From: an uncultured Actinomycetes bacterium
GTDB lineage: Bacteria; Actinomycetota; Actinomycetes; S36-B12; CAIYMF01
NCBI GenBank assembly: GCA_963843975.1
Contig: CAWJMG010000003.1
Location: 30,001-62,000 of the forward strand
DNA length: 32,000 nt
Direction: 5' to 3'
Both the position numbers and the translations under genes were made by a program. Each line of letters starts with the position of its first letter. Within the stretch, counting starts at the first letter, position 1. Below are positions 2,431-18,194 of this stretch, one piece after another. The notes beneath the pieces are model-generated. The model was not told the DNA's origin, searched no databases, and worked only from the letters and a program-made list of their open reading frames with translations.

Positions 2431-4128
2431 TCAGCCGACGATCTCGCTGTCGCCGCGAGTGTCGAGCACGGTGAGGCCGTACGCCACCGCCCACCGGTGG
2501 CCGAGGGCACCGGCGACGTCGGCCCGGCCTGGCGTCGAACCCGGCAGGGCACGCACCACGAGGTCGAGCAGCTCGGCGTCGCCGGCCGGCCCGCCGACCA
2601 GCAGCACGTCGACACCTGTGGGAAGCCCGGACGTCGCCCGGGCGACGTTGTCGCCGACGACGGCGCGCTTGAGGTGCTGGCGCAGCATCCGCCACTCGCC
2701 CGGCGCGAGGCGTCGGTGGAACGGCAGGAGGCCCGCCGGGCCGGGGACGACGAGGGATCCCACCGCGTCGGCAGGCACGGCCGTCTCGACGAAGCGGCGC
2801 TCGCCGTCCTCGCCCACGAGAACGTGCGGGCCCTCGAGCCGTGACGACGCACCGCGCTTGGCCCACTCCGCCGCACCGCGCGGCACGTCGAGCACGTGCG
2901 CGACCGCTGCCGTGAGCAGGTCGCCGGCGCCGGCCACGATGCGCGCGGCCTCGCCGTCGGGCACGACGTCGACCGTGCCGCCGCCGAGGTCGATCACCAG
3001 TGCTTCCGGCCGTGCAGAGGGTGTTGTCATCGCGCCGGTGCGCGCGGCCTCGGCCTCCGACGCGACCCGGGCGACGGGGACCCCGAGGGCGTGCGCGAGC
3101 ACCACTGCTGGGTCGTCGTCGGCGCCGGAGGCTGATGCCAGGGTTGCGACGGCGACAGCGCGGCCGATGACCGACCGGGGCCGTGCGGCGGCGCTCGTGC
3201 CCACGGCGTCGAGGTCGACTACCCACGCATCGTCGACGGCGTGCTCGACGACCCGCCCTCGCTGAGGCAGCCCGACGACGGCCACGACACCTGAAGGCTG
3301 GGGTGCGGCGGCGAGGTCGTGCAGCGACGTCGTAGAACCCGAAGTCGTTCGCGCCCAGGCGATGTCGGCCTCAGCCCCATCACGACGGGGTAGTGCCGGG
3401 CCGATCCCGATGGCGGCGTCACGAAGCCCGCGGAGCGAGGCGGCGACCGCCTCGGCGGCCACGTGCTCGGTGCCGTCGAGGCCGAGCAGCGCCGCGATCC
3501 GGACCGGGTCGACCAGCTGCGCGAGGCCGTGCTCGGCCACCTCGACCGCGACGAGCGAGCAGGCGAGCGCGGCATCGGCGTCGACCTGGTCGACCACGGG
3601 TAGGGGGCGGGTGAGACGTCGGCTCACCAGCACGGCCTCGTCGCCCGCGAGCAGCACGCCCACCACCTCGGCGCCCGAGGACTGCCAGAGGCCGACGCGC
3701 TCCGCAGTGGCCCGGTAGCCGCGCGCGTCGCGGGCCACGAGCACGACCGGCCCAGCCGCCGGCGTCGGGTCGGAGGCGACGTCGACGGGTCGGCCGACTC
3801 CGGCGCCGGAGGTGCCGGGCGTCGCGCTCCCCGACCCGAGCACCCGCAGCCGTCCGGTGTCGGGCGCCGGTGCGGGCAGCACGAGCGCGTGCGAGTCGAC
3901 AGGCCGCTGCGGAGCGACGACCACCCGCGTGACCTCGACGCCCGCCTTGCGGGCGAGCCGGCGTACGACGACCGCGGCGGCCGACGCCGCAGCCGCGGAG
4001 CCCTTGCGGCCTCGCGTGGGGGTGCGCTCCCACACCAGCGGCAGGGGAGGGTCGACCGAGACGTCGACGAGCACGACCTCGGTCGTGGCGTTGCCGACGT
4101 CGACCCCCGCGACGACCGTGCGGTTCAT
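2431..4128 (-). CDS. ddrA: Diol/glycerol dehydratase reactivase, large (alpha) subunit (DdrA/PduG-like)
   Basis: 565-aa ORF. VAGVDVGNATTEVVL and GVLLAGDEAVLVSRRLTRPLPVVDQV align by eye with PduG (IAGIDIGNSSTEVAL; GVILQRDDGVLVSNRLEKPLPIVDEV). Last gene of the dehydratase operon. Confidence 0.8.
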   Translation of the reverse strand: MNRTVVAGVDVGNATTEVVLVDVSVDPPLPLVWERTPTRGRKGSAAAASAAAVVVRRLARKAGVEVTRVVVAPQRPVDSHALVLPAPAPDTGRLRVLGSGSATPGTSGAGVGRPVDVASDPTPAAGPVVLVARDARGYRATAERVGLWQSSGAEVVGVLLAGDEAVLVSRRLTRPLPVVDQVDADAALACSLVAVEVAEHGLAQLVDPVRIAALLGLDGTEHVAAEAVAASLRGLRDAAIGIGPALPRRDGAEADIAWARTTSGSTTSLHDLAAAPQPSGVVAVVGLPQRGRVVEHAVDDAWVVDLDAVGTSAAARPRSVIGRAVAVATLASASGADDDPAVVLAHALGVPVARVASEAEAARTGAMTTPSARPEALVIDLGGGTVDVVPDGEAARIVAGAGDLLTAAVAHVLDVPRGAAEWAKRGASSRLEGPHVLVGEDGERRFVETAVPADAVGSLVVPGPAGLLPFHRRLAPGEWRMLRQHLKRAVVGDNVARATSGLPTGVDVLLVGGPAGDAELLDLVVRALPGSTPGRADVAGALGHRWAVAYGLTVLDTRGDSEIVG

Positions 4129-4137
4129 CGCACCCGC

Positions 4138-4500
4138 TCAGCCCTCGGCCAGGAGGCCACGACGGGCGTACGCCGCTGCGGCCTCGCGGACGAGCGCGGC
4201 GTTGCGGACGGCACCCCGCGACTCCAGCGACGCCGCGATCGACTCGAGCTGCGCGGCGGTCGAGCGCCGCGGGCGGAGCGCGTCGTACACCGCGAGCACC
4301 TCGTCGTCCGGCAGGAGAGTGAGCTCGGCCGCGCGACGCAGGTTGGCCGCGAGCTGCGGGTTGGCGTTGGCCTCGGCGACCGTCGCCTGGTGCTCGAGGG
4401 TGTCGGGGTGGATGCGGATGTCGTCGAGCGAGACGAGACCTTCGCGGACGGCGTCGAGAGTGATCTCGCTGCTGTCGCGGCCGGAACGGGCTGCGGTCAT
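4138..4500 (-). CDS. pduE: B12-dependent diol dehydratase small (gamma) subunit, PduE-like
   Basis: 120 codons at the 3' end of the long 4138..5592 ORF. ATG 4500 overlaps the upstream stop (ATGA). DDIRIHPDTLEHQATVAEANANPQLAANLRRAAELTLLPDDEVLAVYDALRPRRST matches the PduE/DhaB3 core. Confidence 0.85.
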   Translation of the reverse strand: MTAARSGRDSSEITLDAVREGLVSLDDIRIHPDTLEHQATVAEANANPQLAANLRRAAELTLLPDDEVLAVYDALRPRRSTAAQLESIAASLESRGAVRNAALVREAAAAYARRGLLAEG

Positions 4501-6737
4501 CGGAGCACCTCCAGCTCTTCGGGGCCGAGCGCCGGGTCGAGGCAGCCCCGCTCGATCGCGACCAGGGACACCACCTTGGTGTGGAAGCGCGCCTCGATCG
4601 CCATGTCGGAGTAGGGATTCCGGAGCGGCTCTGGGGTCGAGCCCTTGGCGTGACGGCCGGCGTTGGAGCCGAGCGCGCGGTAGAGCTCGGGGGTCACCGT
4701 GGGTGCGACGCTGAACAGCTCGAGGTTGGCCAGCGGTGCGAGGTCGCGTCGGTGGATGAGCGCGGTTCCCTTGGCCTGCAGGCCGATCGCGATGCCGGAT
4801 CCCGCCAGCCTCGCTGCGGTCAGGCCGATGAGCCCGAGGTCGAGGGTGTCGTTGATGCGCACGACCCGCCCGCGGCACCCCTCTTCCTCGAGCCCGGCGA
4901 GCAGCTCCTCGAGCACGTCGTGCACCGACAAGCCCGACAGCGTCGTCCAGATCCGGCGGCCCGTGGCGGCCGAGACACCGATGACGACGTCGGTCGGGTC
5001 TGAGCCGGCGGCGGCCGGGCCGAGCACCCGGAAGGCCGCGGTGCTGCCCGTCGCCTGCTCGCGCAGGAGGTCGTCGACCGAGCGCTGCTGGCGGACGGTG
5101 TTGATCTCGTGCAGCCGCGCTCCGCTCGGCCGGTAGCCCGTGCCGGGGCCGGCGTAGTCGTTCGGGTCGGTCACCAGCGACAGCACGTTCATCTGCTCGT
5201 CGAAGATGGCCGCGGTCTGCAGGTAGTCGCCGCTCACCCGTGCGTGCAGCATCGCCAGAAGCCGCTCGGCCTCCTCGGCGTAGCCGCACGCGTCGAGCGC
5301 CGTGACGACGTCGATCATCGTGACGCCGGACTGCCGGATCACCCGCGAGGCCTCGAGCGGCACCATGAGATCGGCTGCCGGCACGTCCTTGCTGCCAGCG
5401 GCGTCGACCGCCTGCTCGAGCCACTCGTCGTCGAGGTCGGCGAGGCCGAGCCAGCGGTAGACGTCGCGCACGGCCTCGGCGGCCCGGCGGCGCAGCCGTG
5501 CGACCTCGGGCTCGGCCGCGGTACGCAGCCCGCCGTCCACGGTCCAGTCGCGCTGCATGACGAGGTAGTCGTCGATGTCCTCGGAGTTCCACTGGCTCGG
5601 GCCGAACATGTTGTCGTAGCGCTGGATCGAGCCGAAGCCGCTGCAGATGAAGTCTGAGCCGCCGATGAAGATCGGGTGCGTGCGGGAGGTACGCCGCACC
5701 TCCGACTCGCTCATGAGGGCGTCGTTACCGGTGCACGCCTCGAGGTTGCGCAGCATCACCATGAGGTTCTCGGCCATGAGGCTGCGGACGCCGCCCGGCA
5801 CCGAGCCGGCGACCGACGCGGAGTCGATGCCGCCGTTCTGCACGCCCTGCGCGCCCATCGCCCGTGCGAGCGAGACGCATCGGGCCTCGAGGTAGAACAT
5901 CGAGCAGCCCTCGGCACCGCCCATGAGGGCCTCGGAGCCGCCACCCGTCGTCACGCGCATCTTGATGCCGCGGCTGGCATACGCCGAGGTCAGGAACGCC
6001 TTGGACCACGGGGTGTCGTCGCCGTCGACGAAGATCTGCTCGGTGCCGTAGAGCGACACGGTCTCGGCGTACGACACGAGGCCGGCCATGCCGAGCTCGA
6101 GCTCGAGGGCCTCCTCGACCGAGCACTGCACGAGCACGCCGGGCGAGCCCACGGCCGCGCCGATCGACACGGCAACGGCGTTGCTCGGGGCGTCACCCAG
6201 CACCGGCACGGTGGTCTCGATCTCGCGGAACCCGAACGCCGCCGCTGTGGCGGCGTCGGCAGCGAGCAGCAGCGGGTCGTCGGAGCGGTTGGTGACGTGG
6301 GCCTGGTTGCTCGGCGTACGGCGTGCCCTCATCTTGGTCATCGCGATGACGAGCTCGGCCGGCGTCAGCTGGGCGAGCACGCGCGCGAGCTTGGCCGGGG
6401 TGGCACCGGCGGCGAGGCGCACGACCTCCGACCGCGGCACGGCGACGTCCACGAGCATCCGTGCCAGCGCGACGTCGTCGAGGGCCATCACCTCCGCGGC
6501 CACGGACACGTCGATGCCGTGCGCGGCGATGAACGCGTCGACGACGTCGAAGTCGTCCTCGGCCTTCCCGTCGAGCTCGACGACGCGACCGGACGCGTCG
6601 ACGACGAGGCTCGGCACCGGGTCCCCGGGGGAGTCGAACGCCACGAGGCCCAGTGAGGGCTCCTCGACCGCGAACCCGTCGAGGTTGACCCGCTGGGCGT
6701 CCATGAAGCGGAACCGCCCGATCGGCTGGTCAGCCAC
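4497..6737 (-). CDS. pduCD: B12-dependent diol/glycerol dehydratase, large and medium subunits fused (PduC-PduD in one polypeptide)
   Basis: 746-aa ORF; GTG 6737 preceded by GAAGGAGG. The first ~550 aa are co-linear with PduC (MTKMRARRTPSNQAHVTN, GDDTPWSKAFL, YDNMFGPS, NDYAGPGTGYR). The last ~160 aa are PduD-like (VVIGVSAA..., GIAIGLQAKGTALIH), with no stop between the two parts. Confidence 0.9.
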   Translation of the reverse strand: MADQPIGRFRFMDAQRVNLDGFAVEEPSLGLVAFDSPGDPVPSLVVDASGRVVELDGKAEDDFDVVDAFIAAHGIDVSVAAEVMALDDVALARMLVDVAVPRSEVVRLAAGATPAKLARVLAQLTPAELVIAMTKMRARRTPSNQAHVTNRSDDPLLLAADAATAAAFGFREIETTVPVLGDAPSNAVAVSIGAAVGSPGVLVQCSVEEALELELGMAGLVSYAETVSLYGTEQIFVDGDDTPWSKAFLTSAYASRGIKMRVTTGGGSEALMGGAEGCSMFYLEARCVSLARAMGAQGVQNGGIDSASVAGSVPGGVRSLMAENLMVMLRNLEACTGNDALMSESEVRRTSRTHPIFIGGSDFICSGFGSIQRYDNMFGPSQWNSEDIDDYLVMQRDWTVDGGLRTAAEPEVARLRRRAAEAVRDVYRWLGLADLDDEWLEQAVDAAGSKDVPAADLMVPLEASRVIRQSGVTMIDVVTALDACGYAEEAERLLAMLHARVSGDYLQTAAIFDEQMNVLSLVTDPNDYAGPGTGYRPSGARLHEINTVRQQRSVDDLLREQATGSTAAFRVLGPAAAGSDPTDVVIGVSAATGRRIWTTLSGLSVHDVLEELLAGLEEEGCRGRVVRINDTLDLGLIGLTAARLAGSGIAIGLQAKGTALIHRRDLAPLANLELFSVAPTVTPELYRALGSNAGRHAKGSTPEPLRNPYSDMAIEARFHTKVVSLVAIERGCLDPALGPEELEVLR

Positions 6738-7191
6738 CGAGGGCCTCCTTCGCGTCGTGCTCGGCCTCGTGGCCGGAGAAGACGGCGGCCGCCGCGGCCG
6801 CAGCCGCAGCGTCCTGCGCGGCGGTGCCTCCGCTCACGCCGACACCACCGACCACCCGTCCCCTCGACCAGAGCGGCAGGCCGCCCGCGAAGGCGACGAA
6901 GCGGCCGCCGTCCGCGGCGTACATGCCGACGAGCTCGCCGCCGTCGACCACGAGCGGCCCGAGCTCGGCCGTGGCCGCGCGGTGCGCCACCGAGGTGTAC
7001 GCCTTGTCGCGGGCCAGCGTGGGCCCGGCGATCTCGGCGCCGTCCATGCGCTCGAATGCGACGAGGTGGCCGCCGGCGTCCACCACGGCCACCGACACGA
7101 GCGCGTCGAGCGAGGCCGCCTCGGCGCGGGCGGTCGCGCACATGGCGAGCGCCAGGTCAAGGTCGATCTCGGTGCGGGTCGTGCGGGCCAC
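6730..7191 (-). CDS. GlcG/HbpS/PduO-C-terminal-type (DUF336) heme-binding protein
   Basis: 153-aa ORF. GGLPLWSRGRVVGGVGVSGGTAAQD is the family signature. Its stop overlaps the pduCD start by 8 nt. Confidence 0.8.
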   Translation of the reverse strand: MARTTRTEIDLDLALAMCATARAEAASLDALVSVAVVDAGGHLVAFERMDGAEIAGPTLARDKAYTSVAHRAATAELGPLVVDGGELVGMYAADGGRFVAFAGGLPLWSRGRVVGGVGVSGGTAAQDAAAAAAAAAVFSGHEAEHDAKEALGG

Positions 7192-7215
7192 GGGAGCCTC
7201 CTGGGGGAGAAGGGA

Positions 7216-8233
7216 TCAGCGGGCGAGGGCGCGCAGCGCCGCATGCGTGCCGCGCATCGCGACGGCGCCGGCGAGCACGGACTTCGGCACCTTCGCCACG
7301 ACGGTGTAGTTGGTGTCGACGACGTTCGCCACGGGGGTGAGCGCGGTCTGCGAGACGAGCTGGTAGGCATCGAGCGTCGACTGCCCCGTGCAGCTCGGCG
7401 ACCCAGAGGACCATCTGCTGGTGGGCGATGCGGAACGCGTCCTCGAGCGGCCGCGATGAGCCCGTCGTCATGATGAACGTGTCGTCCTCCATGCGCGGCC
7501 ACGGGGTGGGCATGCCCTTGATGAGGTCGAGGATCACCACGGTGTCCATCGCGCACTCGACTGCGACGCCGCACGTCTCGCCCTCGCCCTGCCGGGCGTG
7601 GCCGTCGCCGAGGCTGAACAGCGCGCCCTCGACGTTCACCCCCAGGTAGCAGGTGGTGCCCGCGCGCATCTCGGGTGTGTCCATGTTGCCGCCCCAGTCG
7701 CCCGGGGTGAGCGAGCTGCGCACCTCGCCGAGCGGGGGAGCGACGCCGACCGTGCCGTGCATCGGGTCGAGGGGGAGATCGGCGGTGAACGTCGTGTCGG
7801 CGGCGCTGTAGCGCACGAGCCGGTCGGTGGCGTCGATCTCGTAGATCCAGGTGCGCTCGAGCAGTGCGGGCTGCAGGCTCGCGGTCTGCGGCGTCGAGGT
7901 CAGCGAGCCGAAGAACGGCACCGTGCTGCTGACCCCCCACGCCTCGCGCGGCTCGATCGAGACGAAGTGCACGGCGAGCGTGTCGCCGGGCTGGGCGCCC
8001 TCGACGTAGAACGGGCCGGTCTGCGGGTTGAGCAGCCGGGGGTCGCACACCTCGCTGGGCAGGTCGGACGTCGAGCGCACGCGGCCGCCGAAGCAGTCGA
8101 AGGTCCAGGTCGACAGGCGGGTGCGCGGTCGCACCGAGGCGACGGGCGCGACGCCGCCGAACGTGTACGTGAGGGCCGTGGGGTCGCCGTCAGGGTCCGG
8201 GGCCCAGAACAGGTCGGTCAGCGAGTCGGTCAC
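7216..8233 (-). pseudogene. Acetamidase/formamidase-family amidohydrolase, reading frame broken by one extra nucleotide near 7384-7390
   Basis: GTG 8233 (SD GGGAGA) opens VTDSLTDLFWAP...GNMDTPEMRAGTTCYLGVNVEGALFSLGDGHARQGEGETCGVAVE (FmdA/AmiF-like). After ...QQMVLWVAEL the ORF-track frame becomes Arg-rich nonsense. The adjacent frame reads (T/H)GQSTLDAYQLVSQTALTPVANVVDTNYTVVAKVPKSVL...ALAR then TGA at 7216-7218. Span is 1018 nt (3n+1). Confidence 0.8.
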
Positions 8234-8278
8234 GGCAGCAGTCTCCCTGTCGGGGCGGGGGTGCGGAGGGCGAACGAA

Positions 8279-8312
8279 GGGGGTGCGCCGCGCATCTGCG
8301 CGACGCACCCCC
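8279..8312 (-). terminator. GC-rich hairpin just downstream of the permease stop (candidate terminator/attenuator)
   Basis: GGGGGTGCGCCGCGCA (8279-8294) pairs with TGCGCGACGCACCCCC (8297-8312), 15 of 16 positions. It lies 16 nt after the permease stop (8328-8330). On the minus-strand RNA it is followed by CUUCGUUCG, a poor U-tract. Confidence 0.45.
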
Positions 8313-8327
8313 TGTCGGTGGTGCGGG

Positions 8328-9941
8328 TCAGACGCGCTCGTGCGCCTCCTCGAGGGTGGTCTGCCCGATCTCCGCGAAGATGTCGGGCTTGGCCTTGCGC
8401 ATCCACAGGGCGTAGCCGAAGCCGAGCACCAGGATTCCGACGATGTACCAGGGCATGAGCTGGAACACCAGGCTGTCCGAGCCCAGACCAGCCGCGAAGG
8501 CCCTGTTCGTCCAGAGCAGGTAGAGCGCGTAGAGCATGCCCGCCGCGCCCACGAGCGGTGCGATGAGCGTGGTGATGACGTTGCCCTTGTGCACCTTCTT
8601 GACCCAGAAGTACGAGATCACGGCGAACGACGTGATCGTCTGGACGAGCAGGATCATGGCGGTGCCGATGACGGCGATGAGGCCATAGACGTTCACGTAG
8701 GGAACGAGCTCCGGCGTCGGGACCATGTTGCCGTCGGCGTCGGGGACGTACACGTTCGTGAACAGGAGGAACGCCACCAGGATCACCGTGGTGATGATCG
8801 TCTGCAGGATGACTGCTGCCGCGGGCGACTGGTGCTTCGGGTTGATGGTGCCGAACGAGTTCCGCATCCAGCTCCACGCACCCTCGCGAGCGAGCGCGTA
8901 GATGTAGCGGGCCGAAGCGTTGCCGAACGCGAGCGCGCAGGCGAAGGAACCGATGACGAGCAGGATCTTGTAGATCGTGGTCATGAAGTCACCCATGTTG
9001 GCGGTGACGAGACCGAGCCACAGGTCGACGGGGTTGGCGCCCGCCGACAGCTCGACGGACTTGGCCGCACCGTTGCCGACAACGACGACCCACGACATGA
9101 GCGTGTAGAAGAGGCCGAGGCCGATGACCGCGATCATGGTCGCCCGCGGGACGTTCTTCTTGGGGTCCTTGGACTCCTCGCCATAGACCGCGGTGGTCTC
9201 GTAGCCGATCCAGGACCAGAAGGCGAAGAAGATGCCGATCGCCGCGGCACCCTGGGCCACGCCAGTGCCGAACGCGCCCTCGTCGAGGGACTTGAATGCG
9301 TTCTGCACCGGCACGATGTCGCTGAACATGAGGCCGTCCGGGCCGCCCTTGGCGAACACGGTCACGGCAAGCCCGAGCAGCAGCAGCACCTCGGCGACGA
9401 GCGTGACGCTGAGGACTCCGGCAGCGACCGTGATGGAGAAGTAGGTCAGGACGCCGATCGCGATCGTGCCGATGATGGCGATGACGATCCAGTTCACGTT
9501 GATGCCGGCGGGGACGAGGATGTAGCTCGTCGCGAAGTACGCGAATCCACCGATGAGGGACGCCTCGAACACGATGTAGGCGACAGCTGCGAGCAGGCCT
9601 GAGGCCATGCCCCAGACCTGGCCGAGCCCCTGGGAGATAAACCCGTAGAAGGCTCCGGCCGTCGTCACGTACTTCGCCATGGCGACGAAGCCGATCGTGA
9701 AGATCGTCAGGACGATGGTGGCGAACAGGTAGCCCGCGGAGGCGCCGATCCCGTTGCCGTAGCCGATGGCGATCGGGACGTTGAAGCTCATCGCGGTGAT
9801 GGGGGCCGCGTTCGCCACCGCCATGAACAGAACGCCGACGAGGCCCACGGCCCCTGCCTTGAGCCGGACCTCCTCCTTCGGGCTGACGTGGTGGTCGCCC
9901 GGGAGTGCGACGGGACCGTCGGGACCGTGTTCGGTCGTCAT
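8328..9941 (-). CDS. APC-superfamily amino acid/amine permease
   Basis: Long hydrophobic multi-segment protein (AVGLVGVLFMAVANAAPITAM..., FFAFWSWIGYETTAVYGEESKDPKKNVPRA). ATG 9941 preceded by AAAGGAA was preferred over the ORF-track start at 10004. Confidence 0.85.
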   Translation of the reverse strand: MTTEHGPDGPVALPGDHHVSPKEEVRLKAGAVGLVGVLFMAVANAAPITAMSFNVPIAIGYGNGIGASAGYLFATIVLTIFTIGFVAMAKYVTTAGAFYGFISQGLGQVWGMASGLLAAVAYIVFEASLIGGFAYFATSYILVPAGINVNWIVIAIIGTIAIGVLTYFSITVAAGVLSVTLVAEVLLLLGLAVTVFAKGGPDGLMFSDIVPVQNAFKSLDEGAFGTGVAQGAAAIGIFFAFWSWIGYETTAVYGEESKDPKKNVPRATMIAVIGLGLFYTLMSWVVVVGNGAAKSVELSAGANPVDLWLGLVTANMGDFMTTIYKILLVIGSFACALAFGNASARYIYALAREGAWSWMRNSFGTINPKHQSPAAAVILQTIITTVILVAFLLFTNVYVPDADGNMVPTPELVPYVNVYGLIAVIGTAMILLVQTITSFAVISYFWVKKVHKGNVITTLIAPLVGAAGMLYALYLLWTNRAFAAGLGSDSLVFQLMPWYIVGILVLGFGYALWMRKAKPDIFAEIGQTTLEEAHERV

Positions 9942-10183
9942 ACTCGGGTGTTCCTTTCGCTGGAGGCGCTGGGGTGCTTGCCGCCTACCGCCGGGCCGGC
10001 CCAAGCCCGGCCCGTGCGTGTTGCGGAGTATTCACTGGACCTTTGGACCGAATCAAGGCCTTGGGGGAACCGTTTACCTCGTCGAAACGGTCACCCGTTC
10101 GGTCCAGGCTCACGCGGGGTTCGGGGAAATCTGCGCGTAACGGTCTGCTGAACCGCCGCCTCGCACCAGCACTGGTGAAGATT

Positions 10184-10216
10184 TGGTCTTGTTTTGGTCT
10201 GGTCTTTCGGTATGCT
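10184..10216 (+). promoter_or_regulatory. Candidate promoter of the BMC operon with three direct TGGTCT repeats (possible GntR/HutC operator)
   Basis: TGGTCT at 10184-10189, 10195-10200 and 10200-10205. TTGTTT (10189-10194), 16 nt, then TATGCT (10211-10216) resembles a sigma-A-type -35/-10. SD GGGAGG lies at 10241-10246 before ATG 10251. Confidence 0.35.
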
Positions 10217-10250
10217 CGTGCACGACGTCGCTGGCTGACCGGGAGGTGCC

Positions 10251-11576
10251 ATGACCGATCACGCCCGGGTCGAGGACGGGGAGACGCCGCTCGACTACGG
10301 CTTCTTCTCGTTCGCCTCCAAGACCGAGGTCCTGGACAAGAGCAAGGAGTTCTGGAACCCGAACAAGACCACCTTCTGGTCCGAGTCGGGCGTCCCGCTG
10401 GTCATCGACCGGCGCGAGGACTACTTCATCTACGACGTCACCGGCAAGCGCCTCATCGACGTCCACCTCAACGGCGGCACCTACAACCTCGGGCACCGCA
10501 ACCCCGAGATGGTGCAGGCCATCACCGTGGCCATGCAGCATTTCGACATCGGCAACCACCACTTCCCCTCCCTCGCGCGCACGGCCCTCGCCGAGGCGCT
10601 GATCGCGAGCGCGCCGAAACACATGTCGAAGGTCGTCTACGCCTCGGGCGGGGGGGAGGCCATCGACATCGCCCTCAAGACAGCGCGCCACACGACCCAG
10701 AAGCGCAAGATCGTGTCCATCGTCCGCGCGTTCCACGGGCACACGGGCCTGGCGGTCGGAGCCGGCGACGACCGGTTCTCCAAGCTGTTCCTGTCGGACC
10801 AGCCTGAGGACTTCCCGCACGTGCCCTTCAACGACCTCGAGGCGATGGAGGAGGCGCTGCGTGGGCGCGACGTGGCTGGCGTCATCCTGGAGACGATTCC
10901 CGCCACCTACGGCTTCCCGCTCCCCGACCCCGGCTACCTCGAGGGTGTGAAGCGCCTCTGCGAGAAGTACGACGCCCTCTACATCGCCGACGAGGTGCAG
11001 ACCGGCCTCATGCGCACCGGTGAGTTGTGGGGCATCACCAAGCACGGCATCGAGCCTGACATCCTGGTGACGGGCAAGGGCATCTCGGGCGGCATGTACC
11101 CCATCGCGGCGGTGCTCGTGAGCGAGCGCGCCTCCGGCTGGCTCGACGAGGACGGCTTCGGCCACATCTCGACCTTCGGCGGTGCCGAGCTCGGCTGCAT
11201 CGCCGCGCTCAAGGCGCTCGAGATCTGCAACCGCGCCGAGACCCGCTCGATGGTCCACTACATCGCGGACTTCATCGGCCGGGGCCTGCGCGACATCCAG
11301 GCCACCTACCCCGACTGGTTCGTCGGCATCCGCCAGAACGGCGTGGTGATGGGCCTGGAGTTCGCCCGCCCGCAGGGCGCCAAGGCCGTGATGAAGCGCC
11401 TGTACGAGAACGGCGTCTGGGCGATCTTCTCCACCCTCGACCCGCGGGTGCTGCAGTACAAGCCCGGAATCCTCCTCAAGCCCGAGGTGGCCGAGGAGCT
11501 GCTCGACCGCACCGAGGTCGGCATCGCCCTGGCCCGCGAGGACGTCCTGGGCGCTGGCAAGAAGGCGTGGCGCTGA
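10251..11576 (+). CDS. Class-III aminotransferase-fold PLP enzyme; candidate 1-amino-2-propanol O-phosphate phospho-lyase of the RMM pathway
   Basis: 441-aa ORF. ADEVQTGLMRTG and VTGKGISGG (PLP lysine) are class-III aminotransferase motifs. It is the first gene of the RMM-type operon, where this fold is assigned the phospho-lyase role in M. smegmatis. Confidence 0.8.
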   Translation: MTDHARVEDGETPLDYGFFSFASKTEVLDKSKEFWNPNKTTFWSESGVPLVIDRREDYFIYDVTGKRLIDVHLNGGTYNLGHRNPEMVQAITVAMQHFDIGNHHFPSLARTALAEALIASAPKHMSKVVYASGGGEAIDIALKTARHTTQKRKIVSIVRAFHGHTGLAVGAGDDRFSKLFLSDQPEDFPHVPFNDLEAMEEALRGRDVAGVILETIPATYGFPLPDPGYLEGVKRLCEKYDALYIADEVQTGLMRTGELWGITKHGIEPDILVTGKGISGGMYPIAAVLVSERASGWLDEDGFGHISTFGGAELGCIAALKALEICNRAETRSMVHYIADFIGRGLRDIQATYPDWFVGIRQNGVVMGLEFARPQGAKAVMKRLYENGVWAIFSTLDPRVLQYKPGILLKPEVAEELLDRTEVGIALAREDVLGAGKKAWR

Positions 11577-13142
11577 TGGTCGAGACCATGTTTGAGATGC
11601 CGCTCGACCCCGCCGGCGTGCCGCGCGGGCGGGCCATGATCGAGCGAGCCGAGTGGGCCGCGCGCGCGTTCGCGTCGTACGACGCCGCCACCGTGCAGCG
11701 GATCGTCGACGCTGCCGCCGCCGCGGGTGCCGCGCACGCCAAGGAGCTCGCCGAGGCGGCCGTGCGCGAGACGGGCTTCGGCGTGGCCGAGCACAAGGTG
11801 CTCAAGAACCTCGCCTGCTCGCGCGGCATCGCCGAGCTCTACAGGGCCGCCGACTACGTCGACGTCGTGGTCGACGCCGACGCGAAGATCGTCTCGGTGC
11901 CGCGGCCGGCCGGCGTGGTGCTCGCGCTGACGCCGTCGACGAACCCTGTCGCCACCGTGTACTTCAAGACCCTGCTCGCGCTGCTCACGCGCAACGCCGT
12001 CGTGATCTGCCCGCACCCCTACGCCAAGGAGGTGTGCGCCAAGGCCGCTCGCATCATGGCCGAGGCGGCGGTGGCGGCGGGCGCTCCCGACGGCTGCATC
12101 CAGGTCGTCGACGAGCCGTCGATCCCGCTGGTCAACGCGCTCATGACCGACCCTCGCACCGACGTCATCGTGGCGACGGGCGGCTCGGCGATGGTGCGCT
12201 CGGCTTACCGCAGCGGCAACCCCGCGATCGGCGTCGGGCCGGGCAACGTGCCGGTGCTCGTCGACGCCTCGGCCGACCTCGCGGCGGCGGCCAAGCGGAT
12301 CGTCGACAGCAAGGCGTTCGACAACTCGATCCTGTGCACCAACGAGAGCGTGCTGGTCGTCGAGAAGTCGGTGGCCAAGCAGCGTGTCCCAGCTCGAGCG
12401 CGCGGGCGCCCACCTGCTCGCGCCCGACGAGCGCGACCGGGTGCGCGACCTGATCTTCCCGGGCGGCCGGTTCGACACCGCGTGGGTGGGCAAGGACGCG
12501 ACGGACATCGCGAAGGCGGCCGGCGTGCGCGTCGGCGCGCGCACGCGGATCCTGCTCGCGCCGTTCGACCTCGTCGTGCCGGAGGAGCCGCTCGCGCACG
12601 AGAAGCTCTGCCCGGTGCTCGGCATGGTGGTCGTCGAGACCGCCGCCCGCGGCATCGACGCCGCGCGCGCCGTCCTGCGCATCACCGGCGAGGGCCACTC
12701 GGCCGCGATCCACAGCACGGATGCGCGCACGATCATGGAGTTCTCGGCCGCGGTCCGCGTCCTGCGGGTGTCGGTCAACGTCGGCAACAGCCTCGGCAGC
12801 TCCGGCATCGAGACCAACCTCGCGCCGTCGATGACGATCGGCACCGGCTTCTTCGGCCGCTCGTCGGTGGGGGAGAACCTCGAGCCCAAGCACCTCGTCA
12901 ACTGGACCCGCCTGGCCTGGAACGCCGACTCCTCGGTGCGCATGCCCGACGTCGCAGCGATCTCGCCGTGGCACGCGCCCGACGGCGCCGTCCCGGCGTA
13001 CCCGCGCGCGTCGAACGACGGCGGCGCACCGCTGGTGCCCTCGCCCACGGCTGAGGTCGCGGTCGAGGGTGCGCCCGACAGCCTGCGCGACGAGATCCGC
13101 CGGCTCATCATCGAAGAGCTCAACGCGATCGTGCGGGGCTGA
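11576..13142 (+). pseudogene. CoA-acylating aldehyde dehydrogenase (EutE/PduP-like), frame broken by one extra nucleotide near 12380-12386
   Basis: ATG 11576 overlaps the upstream stop (TGATG). The N-terminal part (11567..13054 ORF) stays sensible up to ...AFDNSILCTNESVLVVEKSVAKQ (catalytic Cys), then turns Arg-rich. The next frame (12384..13142) continues VSQLERAGAHLL...EKLCPVLGMVVVE...GEGHSAAIHS...MTIGTGFFG. Span is 1567 nt (3n+1). Confidence 0.85.
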
Positions 13143-13145
13143 CCC

Positions 13146-13748
13146 GTGGCCGAGCTCCGCTCCTTCATCTTCCTCGACCGGCTGCAGCCGCAGACCATGA
13201 GCTACATGGGCTCGACCGTCAAGGGAGCCCTGCCGCGCGCCGACATGGCCTCGCTGATCATCGAGGTGGCGCCGGGCCTGGACATCGAGCCGCTCACCGA
13301 CGTCGCCCTGAAGTACGCCGAGGTGCAGGCCGGGATCCTGGTGGTGGAGCGGCAGTACGGCTACCTCGAGGTGCACGGCCCGACCGGCCAGGTGAAGGCC
13401 GCCGGCGAGGCGGTGCTCGACTCGCTCGGCGCCGACCCGGACCAGGCCACGAAGCCGCAGGTGCTCGCCTCACGCATCGTGACGATGCTCGACCGCCAGC
13501 ACGCATTCCTCATCAACCGCAACAAGGCCGGCTCGATGGCGCTGCCGGGCGAGTCGCTGTTCGTGCTCGAGATGGCGCCGGCGTCGTACGCGATCCTCGC
13601 GACCAACGAGGCCGAGAAGGCCGCGGCCATCAAGGTCGTGGACTTCCGCATGATCGGTGCGACGGGCCGCGTGTACCTCTCCGGCAAGGAGAGCGACGTC
13701 CGTCAGGCGGCCGAGGCCGCCGAGGCCGCCCTGGGGAGAAGCCGATGA
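13146..13748 (+). CDS. BMC shell protein, double-domain (BMC-T class), paralog 1
   Basis: 200 aa. Co-linear with the 14775..15425 product (LIIEVAPGL.IE, GIL.VERQ.G.LEVH, INRN...SM.LPG.SL.V.EM.PA, NEAEK, MIGA.GRVY). Size and position match the tandem-domain RMM shell proteins. Confidence 0.75.
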   Translation: MAELRSFIFLDRLQPQTMSYMGSTVKGALPRADMASLIIEVAPGLDIEPLTDVALKYAEVQAGILVVERQYGYLEVHGPTGQVKAAGEAVLDSLGADPDQATKPQVLASRIVTMLDRQHAFLINRNKAGSMALPGESLFVLEMAPASYAILATNEAEKAAAIKVVDFRMIGATGRVYLSGKESDVRQAAEAAEAALGRSR

Positions 13749-14188
13749 GCACCGGCCTCGGCGACTCCGAGCGCGACCTGCTGCGCCAGATGGTGCGCCA
13801 GGTCCTGCAGGAGGTCGTGCCGGAGACGATGGCTGCGGCCTCGGCGTCAGGCGGCGCGTCCGACGAGACCGTCGTGCTGACCAACGACGCCGAGCTGGAG
13901 GCGTTCGTGCGCCGCGTCGCCGTGCTCTGCGAGGACCCCGCCGAGCGCGAGGCGCTGCGCAGCGGGAGCCGCCGCTTCCACCTGGCCGGGCACCCGACGA
14001 CGTCGGCGGCTGCTCCCGCCTCCGCAGCCGCGGTGGTCCGGGTCGACAAGGGGGCCGTCACCGAGCGGCACGTGCGCGAGGCGGCGTCCCAGGGCGCCGA
14101 CCTCGTCCTGGGACGCGGCGCCGTCCTGACTCCGCTCGCGCGCGACCGCGCGCGGGCTGCGGGCGTCCGGATCACGAAGGAGAAGTGA
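13745..14188 (+). CDS. Hypothetical BMC-locus protein (amphipathic N-terminal helix, Ala/Ser linker, ~50-aa C-terminal domain)
   Basis: 147 aa; ATGA overlap upstream and TGATG overlap downstream. N-terminus is SERDLLRQMVRQVLQEVV. C-terminus is VVRVDKGAVTERHVREAASQGADLVLGRGAVLTPLARDRARAAGVRI. It occupies the slot of the uncharacterised gene between shell genes in RMM loci. Confidence 0.7.
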   Translation: MSTGLGDSERDLLRQMVRQVLQEVVPETMAAASASGGASDETVVLTNDAELEAFVRRVAVLCEDPAEREALRSGSRRFHLAGHPTTSAAAPASAAAVVRVDKGAVTERHVREAASQGADLVLGRGAVLTPLARDRARAAGVRITKEK

Positions 14189-14778
14189 TGCTGCGCGGAC
14201 GGGTGATCGGGAACGTGTGGGCCAGCCGGAGGCTGGACGAGATCCCTTCAGGCGCGTTCCTGGAGGTGCAGGTCGAGGGTGGCGCGACGCTCATCGCGTT
14301 CGACGTCCTCGGCAGCGGGATCGGGGAGGCCGTGCTCGTGTCCACGGGGTCGGTCGCGGCCTCGTGGTTCCCGGGCGACGCACCGCCGATCGACGCGCTC
14401 ATCATCGGCTCGATCGACGAGAAGCCGGGCAGCGCAGCTCCCGGACCACAGCCCCGCGCCGCACGCCGGCGCGGTCAACGAGGAGGAACACGCATGTCGA
14501 ACAACGCGATCGGTCTCATCGAGACCAAGGGGTACGTCGCTGCACTCGCCGCCGCCGACGCGATGGTGAAGGCCGCGAACGTCGTGATCGTCAGCAAGGA
14601 CACCGTGGGCGACGGCCTGGTGGCCGTGACCATCGTCGGCGACGTCGGCGCGGTCAAGGCTGCGACCGAGGCCGGTGCCGAGACGGCGTCGTCGGTCGGA
14701 GAGCTCGTCTCCGTGCACGTCATCCCGCGTCCGCACGCCGAGCTCAGCAAGCACTTCACGGTCAGCGGCGACGCGTGA
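14188..14778 (+). CDS. Continuous ORF: BMC-P (EutN/CcmL pentamer) domain, 21-aa linker, then BMC-H domain
   Basis: MLRGRVIGNVWASRRLDEIPSGAFLEVQVEGGATLIAFDVLGSGIGEAVLVSTGS...IDALIIGSID is EutN/CcmL-like (aa 1-81). There is no stop before TGA 14776-14778. Confidence 0.85.
   Translation: MLRGRVIGNVWASRRLDEIPSGAFLEVQVEGGATLIAFDVLGSGIGEAVLVSTGSVAASWFPGDAPPIDALIIGSIDEKPGSAAPGPQPRAARRRGQRGGTRMSNNAIGLIETKGYVAALAAADAMVKAANVVIVSKDTVGDGLVAVTIVGDVGAVKAATEAGAETASSVGELVSVHVIPRPHAELSKHFTVSGDA
14494..14778 (+). CDS. BMC-H hexameric shell protein (PduA/EutM-like), from an internal start
   Basis: MSNNAIGLIETKGYVAALAAADAMVKAANV...GDVGAVKAATEAG...GELVSVHVIPRPH is canonical Pfam00936-type sequence. It has its own SD, GAGGAGGAA (14480-14488), before ATG 14494. 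Confidence 0.95.
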   Translation: MSNNAIGLIETKGYVAALAAADAMVKAANVVIVSKDTVGDGLVAVTIVGDVGAVKAATEAGAETASSVGELVSVHVIPRPHAELSKHFTVSGDA

Positions 14779-15425
14779 GCGCGGCCCCGATCGCGGGGCC
14801 GGAGCTGCGTGTCTACCTGCTGATCGAGGATCTGCAGCAGCAGTTCGCGGCGTATCTCGGTACGCCGACACGAGCACGCGGCTACCCGCCGTACGCCGGG
14901 CAGCACGCGCTCATCATCGAGGTCGCACCCGGCCTCGCCATCGAGCGCGTGACGCACCAGGCGCTGACGTCGGTGCCCGACATCGAGCCGGGCATCCTCT
15001 TCGTCGAGCGTCAGTTCGGCGTGCTCGAGGTGCACGCGTCGTCGCTCGACGACGTGCTGCGCGCAGGCGAGGCGATCCTCGACGGGCTCGGCGCGGAACC
15101 GGCCCACCAGCTGGCCCCGCGCGTGCTGTACCACGACGTCATCGAGCACGTCACGGACATGCACGCCGTCATCATCAACCGCAACCGGCAGGCCTCGATG
15201 CTGCTGCCGGGGCAGTCGCTGCTGGTCTACGAGATGACCCCTGCGCTGTTCGCCGCCGTCGCGGCGAACGAGGCCGAGAAGGTGGCGCCGGAGAACACGC
15301 TCGTCGACGTGCAGATGATCGGCGCCGCCGGCCGCGTCTACATCGGCGGCACGACCGAGGGCGTCACGAAGGCGCGCGACGCGATCACGAAGGTCCTCGA
15401 CTCGATCGAGGGCCGTCGGCACTAA
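14775..15425 (+). CDS. BMC shell protein, double-domain (BMC-T class), paralog 2
   Basis: 216 aa. GTG 14775 overlaps the BMC-H stop (GTGA). Co-linear with the 13146..13748 product. Ends in TAA, which directly abuts the tandem repeat. Confidence 0.75.
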   Translation: MSAAPIAGPELRVYLLIEDLQQQFAAYLGTPTRARGYPPYAGQHALIIEVAPGLAIERVTHQALTSVPDIEPGILFVERQFGVLEVHASSLDDVLRAGEAILDGLGAEPAHQLAPRVLYHDVIEHVTDMHAVIINRNRQASMLLPGQSLLVYEMTPALFAAVAANEAEKVAPENTLVDVQMIGAAGRVYIGGTTEGVTKARDAITKVLDSIEGRRH

Positions 15426-15533
15426 GTTCCAGCAAGCACGGGTTCCAGCAAGCACGGGTTCCAGCAAGCACGGGTTCCAGCAAGCACGGGTTCCAGCAAG
15501 CACGGGTTCCAGCAAGCACGGGTTCCAGCACGG
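15426..15533. repeat. Perfect tandem repeat: 6 copies of the 16-mer GTTCCAGCAAGCACGG plus one 12-nt copy lacking AGCA
   Basis: Units start at 15426, 15442, 15458, 15474, 15490 and 15506, all identical. A seventh copy, GTTCCAGCACGG, spans 15522-15533. The array is intergenic between BMC-T2 and the kinase. Confidence 0.97.
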
Positions 15534-15566
15534 CACGTCCCTGTCGTACGACTCGTAGGGAGAACG

Positions 15567-16548
15567 GTGAGTTCCGAGCTCGACACCGACCACCTCGAGG
15601 TCTTCGCGCGCGGCGCGGTGGCCGAGCACGGCATGCCGGACGCCGAGATCACGCTGCTGAACGTGTCGGAGAACGCGACGTTCCGTGCCGACTCCGCCGA
15701 CGGCCGTCGGCTGGTGCTCCGGGTGCACCGCACCGGCTACCACTCGCGCGAGGCGATCGAGAGCGAGCTGGCTTGGATCTCGGCGCTGCGCGCGGACGGG
15801 ATCGTGCACACGGCCCCCGTGATCCCCACCCCTGACGGCCGCGACATCGTCGCGGTGCGCCACCCGGGCGGCGAGGAGCGGCAGGTCGTCGCGTTCGAGT
15901 GGATGAACGGGCACGAGCCGCCCGAGGACCGTCTCGTCGACGACTTCCGCGAGCTCGGTGCCATCACCGCACGCCTGCACCGGCACGCGCGCGAGTGGCA
16001 GCGCCCGGCCGGTTTCACCCGGTTCCGTTGGGACTTCGACACCTCGCTCGGTGCGAACGGGCACTGGGGCCGTTGGCAGGACGGGCTCGGCATGGGACCG
16101 TCCGAGCTCGAGGTGCTCGGTCGTGCGGCCGACGCCGTGCAGCGCCGGCTCGCCGCGTTCGGCGCCGGGCCCGACCGCTTCGGCCTCGTCCACGCCGACA
16201 TGCGCCTCGCCAACCTCCTCGTCGACGGTGACAGCGTCTGCGTGATCGACTTCGACGACTGCGGCCTGTCCTGGTACCTCTACGACCTCGGGTCGTCGCT
16301 GTCGTTCATCGAGCACCTGCCGGTCGTGCCCGAGCTGCATCGACTCGTGGATCACCGGCTACCGCACCGAGGGCACGCTGAGCGCCGAGGAGGTCGCCGA
16401 GCTCCCGACCTTCGTGATGCTGCGCCGCCTGCTGCTCGTCGCGTGGATCGGCTCGCACTCCGCCGTCCCGGAGGCTCAGGCCCTCGGCGCCGACTTCACC
16501 ACCGTGTCCTGCGACCTCGCGGAGAAGTACCTCGTCCAGTTCGGCTGA
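15567..16548 (+). pseudogene. APH-family (phosphotransferase) amino-alcohol kinase, RMM-type; frame broken by one extra nucleotide near 16335-16340
   Basis: GTG 15567 (SD GGGAGAA). Sensible sequence runs to ...VIDFDDCGLSWYLYDLGSSLSFIEHLPVVPEL and then becomes nonsense. The next frame reads IDSWITGYRTEGTLSAEEVAELPTFVMLRRLLLVAWIGSHSAVPEAQALGADFTTVSCDLAEKYLVQFG, stop 16546-16548. That stretch is co-linear with the intact paralog at 20532..21533. Span is 982 nt (3n+1). Confidence 0.85.
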
Positions 16549-16564
16549 CCTGCCCGGAGGATCC

Positions 16565-17354
16565 ATGTTCAGCTCCATCGCCGGCCGCTCCGTCATCGTG
16601 ACGGGTGGCACCAAGGGCATCGGCAAGGGCATCGCGCGCGTGTTCGCGCGGGCTGGCGCCAACGTCCTCATCACCGGGCGCAACGAGGCGGACGCCGCCG
16701 CCTGCGCAGCCGAGCTCACCGGGCTCGGTGGCGGCGAGGTCACGTACGTCCTCGGCGACGTCGCGTCGGCCGAGTCGTGCGCGGCGATGGCCGCGACCGC
16801 GGTCGAGCGCAACGGCGGCATCGACGTGCTCTGCGCCAACGCCGGGATCTTCCCCGACTCCAAGCTTCGCGACGATGACCGAGGCCGACATGGACCTCGT
16901 CTTCGGCACCAACATCAAGGGCACGCTGCTGTCGGTGCAGGCGTGCATGCCGGCGCTCACGGCGTCGGGCCGCGGGCGCGTCATCCTCACCTCGTCGATC
17001 ACCGGGCCGATCACCGGCTACCCGGGCTGGTCGCACTACGGCGCGAGCAAGGCCGCACAGCTGGGCTTCATGCGTACGGCGGCCATCGAGCTCGCGCCGC
17101 GCAAGATCACCGTGAACGCAGTGCTCCCGGGCAACGTCGCGACCGAGGGCCTGGCCGAGCTCGGCCCGGAGTACCGCGCGTCGATGGAGGCGAGCATCCC
17201 GTTGAGGGCGCTGGGCGAGGTCGACGACATCGGCAACGCCGCCCTGTTCTTCGCCACCGACGAGGCGGCGTACATCACCGGGCAGGCGCTCGCGGTCGAC
17301 GGCGGCCAGGTGCTGCCCGAGTCGCTCGCGGCGCTCGAGGCCGCAGCCGACTAG
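16565..17354 (+). pseudogene. Short-chain dehydrogenase/reductase (RMM aminopropanol dehydrogenase position); frame broken by one extra nucleotide near 16865-16869
   Basis: [11 protein letters not shown]...[10 protein letters not shown] is followed by nonsense. The next frame (tail of ORF 16605..17354) reads [18 protein letters not shown]...YGASKAA...[10 protein letters not shown]. Span is 790 nt (3n+1). Confidence 0.85.
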
Positions 17355-17396
17355 ACGACGTACCGTGGTCGCACCGACACCGCACCGGGGGGTGAG

Positions 17397-18194
17397 ATGA
17401 CCGAGACCGACGCCCTCCTGGGGCCGACGGCCGATGAGGCGCGGCGCAACATCGTCGGCCTCATCACCTCCGGCGCGCTGCGACCAGGTCAGCGCCTCGG
17501 CGCCGAGCGTGATCTCGCCGTGCAGCTCGGCGTCAGCCGGTCGACCCTGCGCGCCGCCCTGGCCTCGCTCGAGCAGGACGGCCTCGTTCGTCGCGTCCCC
17601 GGCCGCGGCGGCGGCACGTTCGTCGCGCGGGAGAAGATCGACCGCGACCTCTCGCGCATCGTCGGCGTGCCCGCGCTCCTGCGCGACCAGGGCTACACCG
17701 CCGGCACCCGCGTCGTGAGCGGTGCGGTCGCGCCCCCCGATCCGGATGCGCGCGCGGCGCTCGAGATGGACGACGACTCGTTCGTCGTCGACCTCGTGCG
17801 CATCCGCCTCGCCGACGGAAGCCCCATCTCGCTCGAGCACGCGCGCCTGCCTGCCGAGCGCTTCCCCGGTCTGCTCGAGCGCCCGCTCGGCGGCTCGCTG
17901 TACCAGCTGCTCGAGAAGGAGTACGGCGTCGGCCCGCACCAGGCCGTGGAGAGGCTCGAGGTCGTGTCGGCATCCGACGACGAGGCACGCGTCCTCGGCG
18001 TCCCGTCCGGCTCGCCCCTGATCTCGATCACGCGCACGACCACCGACTCCGACGGCCGGCCGTTCGAGTACTCGCACGACCTGTTCCGCGCGGACCGCAC
18101 CCGCATCACCGTGCGCACGTACGGAGCACCGGCGGGCGCGGGGATGGACGCGACCCGCGGCCGTCTCGTCGAGGTCCGCGACAACACCGCCTGA
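17397..18194 (+). CDS. GntR-family regulator, HutC-like (winged HTH plus UTRA-type effector domain)
   Basis: 265 aa. ERDLAVQLGVSRSTLRAALASLEQDGLVRRVPGRGGGTFV is a GntR wHTH. The C-terminal half resembles UTRA domains (...PISLEHARLP...YSHDLFRADR). Confidence 0.8.
   Translation: MTETDALLGPTADEARRNIVGLITSGALRPGQRLGAERDLAVQLGVSRSTLRAALASLEQDGLVRRVPGRGGGTFVAREKIDRDLSRIVGVPALLRDQGYTAGTRVVSGAVAPPDPDARAALEMDDDSFVVDLVRIRLADGSPISLEHARLPAERFPGLLERPLGGSLYQLLEKEYGVGPHQAVERLEVVSASDDEARVLGVPSGSPLISITRTTTDSDGRPFEYSHDLFRADRTRITVRTYGAPAGAGMDATRGRLVEVRDNTA

Follow-up and report, generated by a model that had tools for sequence, protein, structure and literature searches.

Four frame-broken enzyme genes in an actinobacterial RMM2-type microcompartment locus very probably reflect motif-bound consensus errors of the assembly

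In a 32-kb stretch of DNA from an uncultured actinobacterium (hereafter the window, analysed over its full length), four enzyme genes of a microcompartment locus change reading frame. The initial annotation set these enzymes against shell genes that appeared intact and offered three explanations: context-specific sequencing or assembly error, a decaying compartment whose shell is still intact, and deliberate or systematic editing. The question is whether the genes are broken in the bacterium or only in its deposited sequence. The whole 4.19-Mb assembly was subjected to a codon-frame scan, with 400 kb of a same-genus isolate genome as the control, and the affected genes were compared with those of relatives. 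The four breaks are very probably consensus (basecalling or polishing) errors of the assembly and not mutations, as inferred from their pattern and from the relatives.

RMM2 loci comprise a syntenic block from permease to GntR regulator, flanked on the opposite strand by homologs of diol dehydratase (Axen, Erbilgin and Kerfeld 2014, PMC4207490). Pfam profiles assign the genes of the window as follows:

2431..7215, minus strand: dehydratase arm (reactivase, small subunit region, fused large and medium subunits, HbpS-like), intact
2431-4137, minus strand: diol dehydratase reactivase (PF08841)
4497-6767, minus strand: fused large and medium diol dehydratase subunits (PF02286 and PF02288)
within 2431..7215, minus strand: gene for an HbpS-like protein (PF03928)
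7216..8272, minus strand: FmdA/AmdA-family amidase gene, in two frames (PF03069 on the N-terminal piece)
within 8328..11576, minus strand: amino-acid permease (PF13520), intact
within 8328..11576, plus strand: class-III aminotransferase/phospho-lyase (PF00202), intact
11549..13142, plus strand: microcompartment aldehyde dehydrogenase gene, in two frames (PF00171 on the N-terminal piece)
13143..15425, plus strand: shell block (MSM0275-like BMC-T, 147-aa ORF, BMC-P of the EutN type, BMC-H, MSM0271-like BMC-T)
15552..16548, plus strand: APH-family (aminopropanol) kinase gene, in two frames (PF01636)
16565..17354, plus strand: short-chain dehydrogenase (SDR; aminopropanol dehydrogenase) gene, in two frames (PF00106/PF13561)
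17370..18194, plus strand: GntR/UTRA regulator (PF00392 and PF07702), intact

The order of permease, class-III aminotransferase, aldehyde dehydrogenase, phosphotransferase, SDR and GntR regulator is that of RMM2, and the diol dehydratase homologs adjoin it on the opposite strand. The BMC-H, BMC-T and BMC-P proteins (PF00936, PF03319) are homologous to the mycobacterial RMM shell, with matches in the PDB to 5l39 (MSM0275, E = 3e-97) and 5suh (MSM0271, E = 8e-98); the 147-aa ORF among them had no match in solved structures. The locus resembles known RMM2 loci (PMC4207490; M. smegmatis shell proteins MSM0271-0275, PDB 5suh, 5l39) in its syntenic block and its opposite-strand dehydratase and reactivase, but differs from the RMM2 loci of Mycobacterium or Rhodococcus in its host, a Longivirga-like actinobacterium, in a dehydratase arm that also holds the FmdA/AmdA amidase and the HbpS-like gene, and in the four genes with frame errors as deposited. 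The fusion of the large and medium dehydratase subunits was considered as another artefact and rejected, as it is kept in relatives L024 and L029.

The codon-frame scan located four same-strand frame switches, each inside a single gene and each net +1, at 7390-7396 (minus strand), 12383/12384, 16332-16338 and 16862-16868, with no slippery heptamer at any of them and no further frame break in the 32 kb. This bears out the initial annotation as to the number, sign and places of the breaks, the intactness in frame of the other genes, and the three RMM enzymes hit (aldehyde dehydrogenase, kinase and dehydrogenase), the fourth gene being the amidase. The presumed error sites are:

7390..7396, minus strand: site 1, coding-strand GAGCTGC; aligned relatives have GAGCTC
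12377..12386, plus strand: site 2, AAGCAGC^GTG, lacking the TG of CAGCTG compared with relatives
16332..16338, plus strand: site 3, GAGCTGC; aligned relatives have GAGCTC or GAGCTG
16862..16868, plus strand: site 4, AAGCTTC; close relatives have AAGCTC in the alignment

The extra base of the three insertion sites is missing from all aligned relatives, among them the isolate Longivirga aurantiaca, and these encode each gene in a single frame. At site 1, GAGCT-CAC is found in 7 same-genus loci, including that of the L. aurantiaca isolate, and the N- and C-terminal pieces of the amidase, whose frame switch was placed at about 7375/7376, share a single frame and follow each other in the relatives L024, L014 and L015. 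The kinase pieces are contiguous and in one frame in L024, L023, L029 and L030, as are the two SDR pieces in relatives, the first piece covering profile positions 2-91 and the second 88-234. In L024, L023 and L029, the two pieces of the aldehyde dehydrogenase lie one codon apart and share a frame; no Pfam domain was found in the C-terminal piece, which is 95% identical to the in-frame Longivirga ortholog. Both halves of each broken gene are 87-96% protein-identical to the intact gene of the isolate relative, and the pieces 3' of each break still have a GC3 above 0.9 and are 87-95% identical at the protein level.

The similar local context that had been proposed for the four breaks is real, with the octamer GAGCTGCA common to two of them, but the rule proposed for it, a C inserted after AG-CNN, gives way to one of a G or T added within RAGCTC: the relatives show the extra base to be G in GAGCT[G]C at two sites (7391 and 16337) and T in AAGCT[T]C at one (16866/16867). 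Nor does one extra base describe the aldehyde dehydrogenase well. All eight aligned relatives (8/8) are 2 nt longer at site 2, the two closest reading AAGCAGCTGGTG, and the lesion would be explained more simply by two missing bases, CAGC[TG]GTG. The context of site 2 lies at a break in 1/132 of its genome occurrences, and this lesion lacks the signature of a recurrent break.

The same type of lesion is spread over the whole assembly. We found about 355 same-strand frame breaks, or 0.85 per 10 kb, and net +1 breaks account for 301 of 331 (91%); in the 400 kb of the isolate, the same scan returned only two candidates, both marginal. A frameshift density as high elsewhere in the genome was the outcome that the initial annotation had named as refuting its pattern; this positive result supports context-specific sequencing or assembly error. 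The four breaks in 9.5 kb exceed the genome mean about fivefold, but enrichment at the microcompartment locus was rejected because 17 of 420 10-kb bins (4%) hold at least four breaks, and the locus, although above the mean, is not unusual. Essential genes are affected as well: single-copy rpoC is interrupted at GAAGCTC (C3:2196735), its two parts matching model positions 2-138 and 146-1146 in different frames, and ribonucleotide reductase is interrupted at AAGCTTC. In ribonucleotide reductase, lysine aminomutase and a BD-FAE hydrolase, Pfam profile coordinates run consecutively across the split pieces, and RecN is divided into pieces carrying its N- and C-terminal domains. The assembly comprises 3 contigs, yet its marker completeness is 92.9%.

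An unbiased k-mer and hexamer search, in which breaks were compared with background positions, found GAGCTC plus one base at 183 of 355 breaks (52%) compared with 8.7% of background positions, and this signal is equal on both assembly strands. GAGCTGCA, GAGCTGCAT and AAGCTTCG are 17- to 58-fold overrepresented at breaks relative to chance (0.6%). Among their genome occurrences, those at frame breaks number 46/466 (10%) for GAGCTGCA, 29/213 for GAGCTGCAC (site 1), 15/55 for GAGCTGCAT (site 3) and 13/37 (35%) for AAGCTTCG (site 4). At break sites, GAGCTGC is followed by A in 75% of cases, compared with 8% for intact GAGCTC. A broader GRGCYC motif, as in Propionibacterium, was unsupported, since GGGCCC showed no enrichment at breaks (5/1771).

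The per-site error rate of GAGCTC is about 4%, and this bears directly on the shell genes. The shell block contains only three GAGCTC sites, all intact, from which about 0.1 errors would be expected; selective sparing of the shell was therefore rejected, and the difference between affected enzymes and an unaffected shell, to which the initial annotation had drawn attention, is predicted by motif counts and carries no weight. No frame break lies within the block (13143..15425), as had been claimed; however, there are four shell genes, not five, and BMC-P is without its stop:

14429..14441, plus strand: expected stop region of BMC-P, reading GCAGCGCAGCTCC; stop codon absent, AGCT-core site

BMC-P runs in frame into BMC-H, with no stop in any frame before the BMC-H ATG; in relatives, the IDE of BMC-P is followed after five to eight codons by TAG or TGA. 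As judged from these alignments, the BMC-P gene is not clean, its stop codon having been lost at an AGCT-core site.

We propose a systematic error by which the assembly gains a single base within the palindrome GAGCTC or a close variant of it such as AAGCTC; which base is added would depend on the neighboring base, so that GAGCTC before A would become GAGCTGCA. Three of the window sites would then be extra-base errors and the fourth a two-base omission in CAGCTG. GAGCTC may be modified (methylated) in native DNA and misread by a long-read, nanopore-type basecaller, and such modification and misreading are the most likely cause of the errors. A 5mC motif, GRGCYC, which includes GAGCTC, has been documented in a high-GC actinobacterium (PMC11649196). 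A search of the genome for a cognate methylase gave one candidate C5-methyltransferase gene (C1:1273250-1274480), itself split at GAAGCTC, and no match to the PF01555 methylase.

An artefact could also have arisen if a mixed-strain consensus of a metagenome bin had written CTG and CTC alleles side by side at polymorphic third-codon positions, giving GAGCTGC, which we consider unlikely. In its favor, relatives carry both GAGCTC and GAGCTG at the kinase site, most of the closest relatives in the database are metagenome bins, further +1 insertions are present at this locus in another bin of the clade (L030), and GAGCTGC at breaks is mostly on the coding strand (47 vs. 13). However, allele mixing does not predict the motif specificity. 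The insertions fall at several places inside a palindromic hexamer (GAGGCTC, GAGCTTC, GAAGCTC), non-wobble positions included, all aligned relatives have CTC at the amidase site, and CTT is a disfavored codon in this genome. A different proposal is that a fraction of the cells truly carries the extra bases: a SacI-like, GAGCTC-specific nuclease or modification system would cut the DNA in vivo, faulty repair would leave one-base insertions, and the assembly would have captured the resulting heterogeneity. We regard it as extremely improbable.

Real and recent inactivation, leaving the compartment enzymes as pseudogenes behind a retained shell, would fit the presence of the lesions in the deposited sequence and their local density, but is very improbable, as the same type of lesion affects about 355 genes, rpoC and ribonucleotide reductase among them, the same-genus isolate is clean in the same scan, the downstream pieces show no decay, and the escape of a shell with only three target motifs is expected. 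The decaying compartment of the initial annotation is unsupported, as is deliberate or systematic editing, given breaks alike in sign and motif throughout the genome and in essential genes, and given the high identity of both halves of each broken gene to the intact gene of the isolate. Programmed recoding or editing, by which the proteins would be restored through a +1 frameshift or a corrected transcript at AGCT-core sites, could in principle use the recurrent context as its signal, but it has next to no probability. Slippery sequences are absent, the inserted base is not constant (G, T, C/G, A), and at one site the lesion is instead a 2-base gap. In relatives, an isolate among them, the same proteins are encoded in frame with no extra base, and recoding would be required in hundreds of genes of a single species. 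Motif-bound consensus error is thus the explanation we retain.

Long-read indel errors reportedly break protein prediction, as Watson and Warr are said to have described in Nat Biotechnol in 2019. The assembly studied here shares with that class of error the single-base indels that split many genes, the contiguity and the lowered marker completeness; in contrast to the classic errors of homopolymer length, those found here lie in a palindromic hexamer. Motif-bound, modification-mediated errors in nanopore-only genomes have been documented for Listeria at GCAGC and GCTGG (Chiou et al. 2023, Commun Biol, PMC10687267). Both cases involve one short motif genome-wide, relatives conserved at the affected positions, and a highly contiguous assembly of reduced gene-level quality (PMC10687267). 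They differ in that the errors here are mostly one-base insertions at GAGCTC/AAGCTC, and in that platform and modification are inferred here. Published modification-mediated errors are mostly substitutions, whereas those of the window and genome are insertions.

Pseudogene calls, completeness estimates and metabolic inference from this assembly are unreliable wherever GAGCTC-type motifs occur, and about 9% of its genes would be wrongly called broken; similar long-read bins of the clade are probably unreliable likewise. There is little biology in these breaks, although the error footprint predicts that GAGCTC is modified in this organism. In the bacterium itself the four enzyme genes are almost certainly unbroken, and its RMM2-type aminopropanol/aminoacetone microcompartment locus is most likely ordinary and intact.

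The window (G+C 71-72%) lies on contig C3 (30001-62000) of the source assembly, which comprises 4.19 Mb in three contigs. Its gene map, derived from frame-specific GC3 and a Viterbi segmentation on codon scores, was unambiguous, and gene names were assigned through Pfam and PDB sequence searches:

2431-4137, minus strand, diol-dehydratase reactivase
~4168-4502, minus strand, short ORF, putative dehydratase small subunit by position only
4497-6767, minus strand, fused large and medium dehydratase subunit (756-aa ORF)
6733-7215, minus strand, HbpS-like protein
7216-8272, minus strand, FmdA/AmdA amidase
8328-9923, minus strand, amino-acid permease
10239-11576, plus strand, class-III aminotransferase
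11549-13142, plus strand, aldehyde dehydrogenase
13143-13748, plus strand, MSM0275-like BMC-T
13745-14188, plus strand, 147-aa ORF between BMC-T and BMC-P
start 14185, plus strand, BMC-P/EutN
14494-14778, plus strand, BMC-H
14775-15425, plus strand, MSM0271-like BMC-T
15552-16548, plus strand, APH-family kinase
16565-17354, plus strand, SDR
17370-18194, plus strand, GntR/UTRA regulator

The locus is of the RMM2 type, in which genes for diol dehydratase, on the opposite strand, join the RMM1 gene set, whose synteny spans permease to regulator (Axen et al., 2014). The fusion of the large and medium dehydratase subunits is real, since it is kept in Longivirga aurantiaca and one other relative. 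The 147-aa ORF, which ends in a GAVLTPLARDRARAAGVRI motif, matched no Pfam family and none of the solved structures.

Segmentation placed frame changes in the genes encoding the amidase (~7375/7376), aldehyde dehydrogenase (12382/12383), kinase (16337/16338), and SDR (16864/16865). Past each switch the upstream frame stays open for another 217-670 nt, both pieces of each gene belong to one protein family, and the net shift is +1 at all four; a same-strand frame-change scan found no further junction of this behavior across the 32-kb window. The four internal net +1 changes described in the initial annotation are thus present, and the local strings quoted there match the deposited letters. The observation is real in those letters, yet it is an assembly artefact.

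Sites were aligned to same-genus genomes. At the amidase site, seven loci, including that of the isolate L. aurantiaca, read GAGCT-CAC, while the window reads GAGCTGCAC; at the kinase site the window has GAGCTGC versus GAGCTC or GAGCTG in relatives, and at the SDR site AAGCTTC versus AAGCTC in close relatives. At the aldehyde dehydrogenase site (12383/12384), all eight aligned relatives are two bases longer (AAGCAGC--GTG in the window versus AAGCAGCTGGTG in the closest relatives). By these alignments, three lesions are one-base insertions within RAGCTC hexamers and the fourth is an omission of two bases from CAGCTG, so that the earlier description of one extra base per site holds for three sites but not for the aldehyde dehydrogenase. 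In the two closest relatives, the L. aurantiaca isolate locus (L024) and a bin (L023), the two pieces of every gene the locus covers, N- and C-terminal, adjoin in a single frame. Two different +1 insertions, CAGA[G]CCGG and CGGA[C]CGAG, affect the genes for the amidase and the aldehyde dehydrogenase at the same locus of a long-contig bin of the MFD series (L030:5500-5610 and 9860-9930) relative to a 98%-identical bin (L029). Other assemblies of the clade probably carry similar artefacts.

To the three contigs we applied a segmentation into six coding frames and non-coding sequence, with codon scores trained on the genome's own long ORFs, counting as a break any same-strand frame change whose upstream frame stayed open for at least 45 nt beyond. 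The assembly holds 355 breaks (0.85 per 10 kb), net +1 in 301 of the 331 that abut. At least four breaks fall in 17 of 420 10-kb bins; the 9.5-kb interval of the window belongs to the upper 4% and is no outlier, and by these counts the locus is not special. The identical scan of 400 kb of a same-genus isolate genome (G031) gave two marginal candidates (0.05 per 10 kb). As a check of precision, five gene cases from randomly drawn breaks were put to Pfam. In three, the two pieces matched a single family at consecutive stretches of its profile (lysine aminomutase, 1-103 and 114-461; ribonucleotide reductase barrel, 1-245 and 249-523; BD-FAE, 1-81 and 84-215), RecN had its N- and C-terminal domains matched on separate pieces, and an ABC-ATPase-like pair, the fifth case, gave no decisive result. 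Also split is rpoC, an essential single-copy gene (model positions 2-138 and 146-1146); its two frames meet at G000:C3:2196735 (L001/L002) in GTCGAAGCTCGAGG, a GAGCTC with an additional A. One 10-kb bin contains 10 breaks and another 7, far over the mean, which suggests that errors of a second, clustered mode occur elsewhere in the assembly.

An unbiased k-mer comparison with random coding positions showed AAGCTTC, GAGCTTC, GAGGCTC, GAGCCTC, and AGCTGCA to be enriched at breaks. Scanning all hexamers, one-base-insertion derivatives of the palindrome GAGCTC were found at 189 of 355 breaks versus 10.6% of background positions, and within ±25 nt at 183 of 355 versus 8.7%. Asymmetric derivatives were equally frequent on the two assembly strands (30/30, 23/23, and 31/30), as expected because GAGCTC is palindromic. 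The inserted base varies with the neighboring base: A follows 75% of break GAGCTGC versus 8% of intact GAGCTC. The window's own strings are recurrent break signatures: against a chance rate of 0.6%, detected breaks coincide with 46 of 466 genome occurrences of GAGCTGCA, 29 of 213 of GAGCTGCAC, 15 of 55 of GAGCTGCAT, and 13 of 37 of AAGCTTCG. AAGCAGCG, the context in the aldehyde dehydrogenase gene, does not recur as a signature (1 of 132 genome occurrences at a break), and that lesion is therefore another kind of error or unrelated.

The initial annotation had contrasted broken enzymes with spared shell genes. No shell gene has a frame break; however, the contrast carries no weight. Genome-wide, 4242 GAGCTC sites are intact and about 180 are detectably corrupted, roughly 4% per site. 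Shell genes contain three intact sites, and the three broken plus-strand enzyme genes ten besides their own error sites; with ~0.1 errors expected in the shell genes, their escape is uninformative. Moreover, at 14429-14494 BMC-P (EutN) lacks a stop codon, and its reading frame continues through the spacer into BMC-H. This spacer is conserved and carries a GAGGAGGAA ribosome-binding site; in relatives BMC-P ends five to eight codons past the IDE motif, at TAG or TGA, and where Longivirga has TAGCTG the window has GCAGCTC, a signature 7-mer. The missing stop is probably a fifth error, at an AGCT-core site, rather than a real pentamer-hexamer fusion.

As to the cause, we infer that GAGCTC carries a base modification that native long-read data would misread. 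Motif-specific modification-mediated errors are known from nanopore-only genomes (PMC10687267), although those published are mainly substitutions, whereas here they are insertions. A 5mC motif covering GAGCTC, GRGCYC, occurs in a high-GC actinobacterium (PMC11649196); in contrast to that broader motif, GGGCCC is unaffected in the source genome (5 of 1771 at breaks). A candidate for the enzyme that would modify GAGCTC is the product of the assembly's sole C5 DNA-methyltransferase gene (G000:C1:1273250-1274480; L021/L022), itself split at GGAAGCTCTC (GAAGCTC). That gene sits in a low-GC3 stretch and appears horizontally acquired. Marker completeness is only 92.9% despite three contigs; among the other assemblies of the genus with at most 10 contigs, four of five reach 49-82% and the fifth 96%, while fragmented ones reach 75-99%, and those of 100-500 contigs 75-97%, mostly at least 88%. 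This pattern is compatible with indel-laden long-read assemblies and, with the L030 insertions, backs the modification-based cause circumstantially. Alternatively, the assembly could have written the alleles of two strains next to each other, an artefact with which the kinase site agrees, but the palindromic motif, the non-wobble insertions, and the amidase site do not.

Context-specific sequencing or assembly error, one of the options initially raised, is borne out by motif-bound breaks across the genome, the split rpoC, and clean relatives. The breaks are genome-wide, motif-bound, and sign-biased, occur in indispensable genes, and are absent from relatives; they are therefore assembly errors, not properties of the organism, and the microcompartment cluster is an ordinary one of the RMM2 type.
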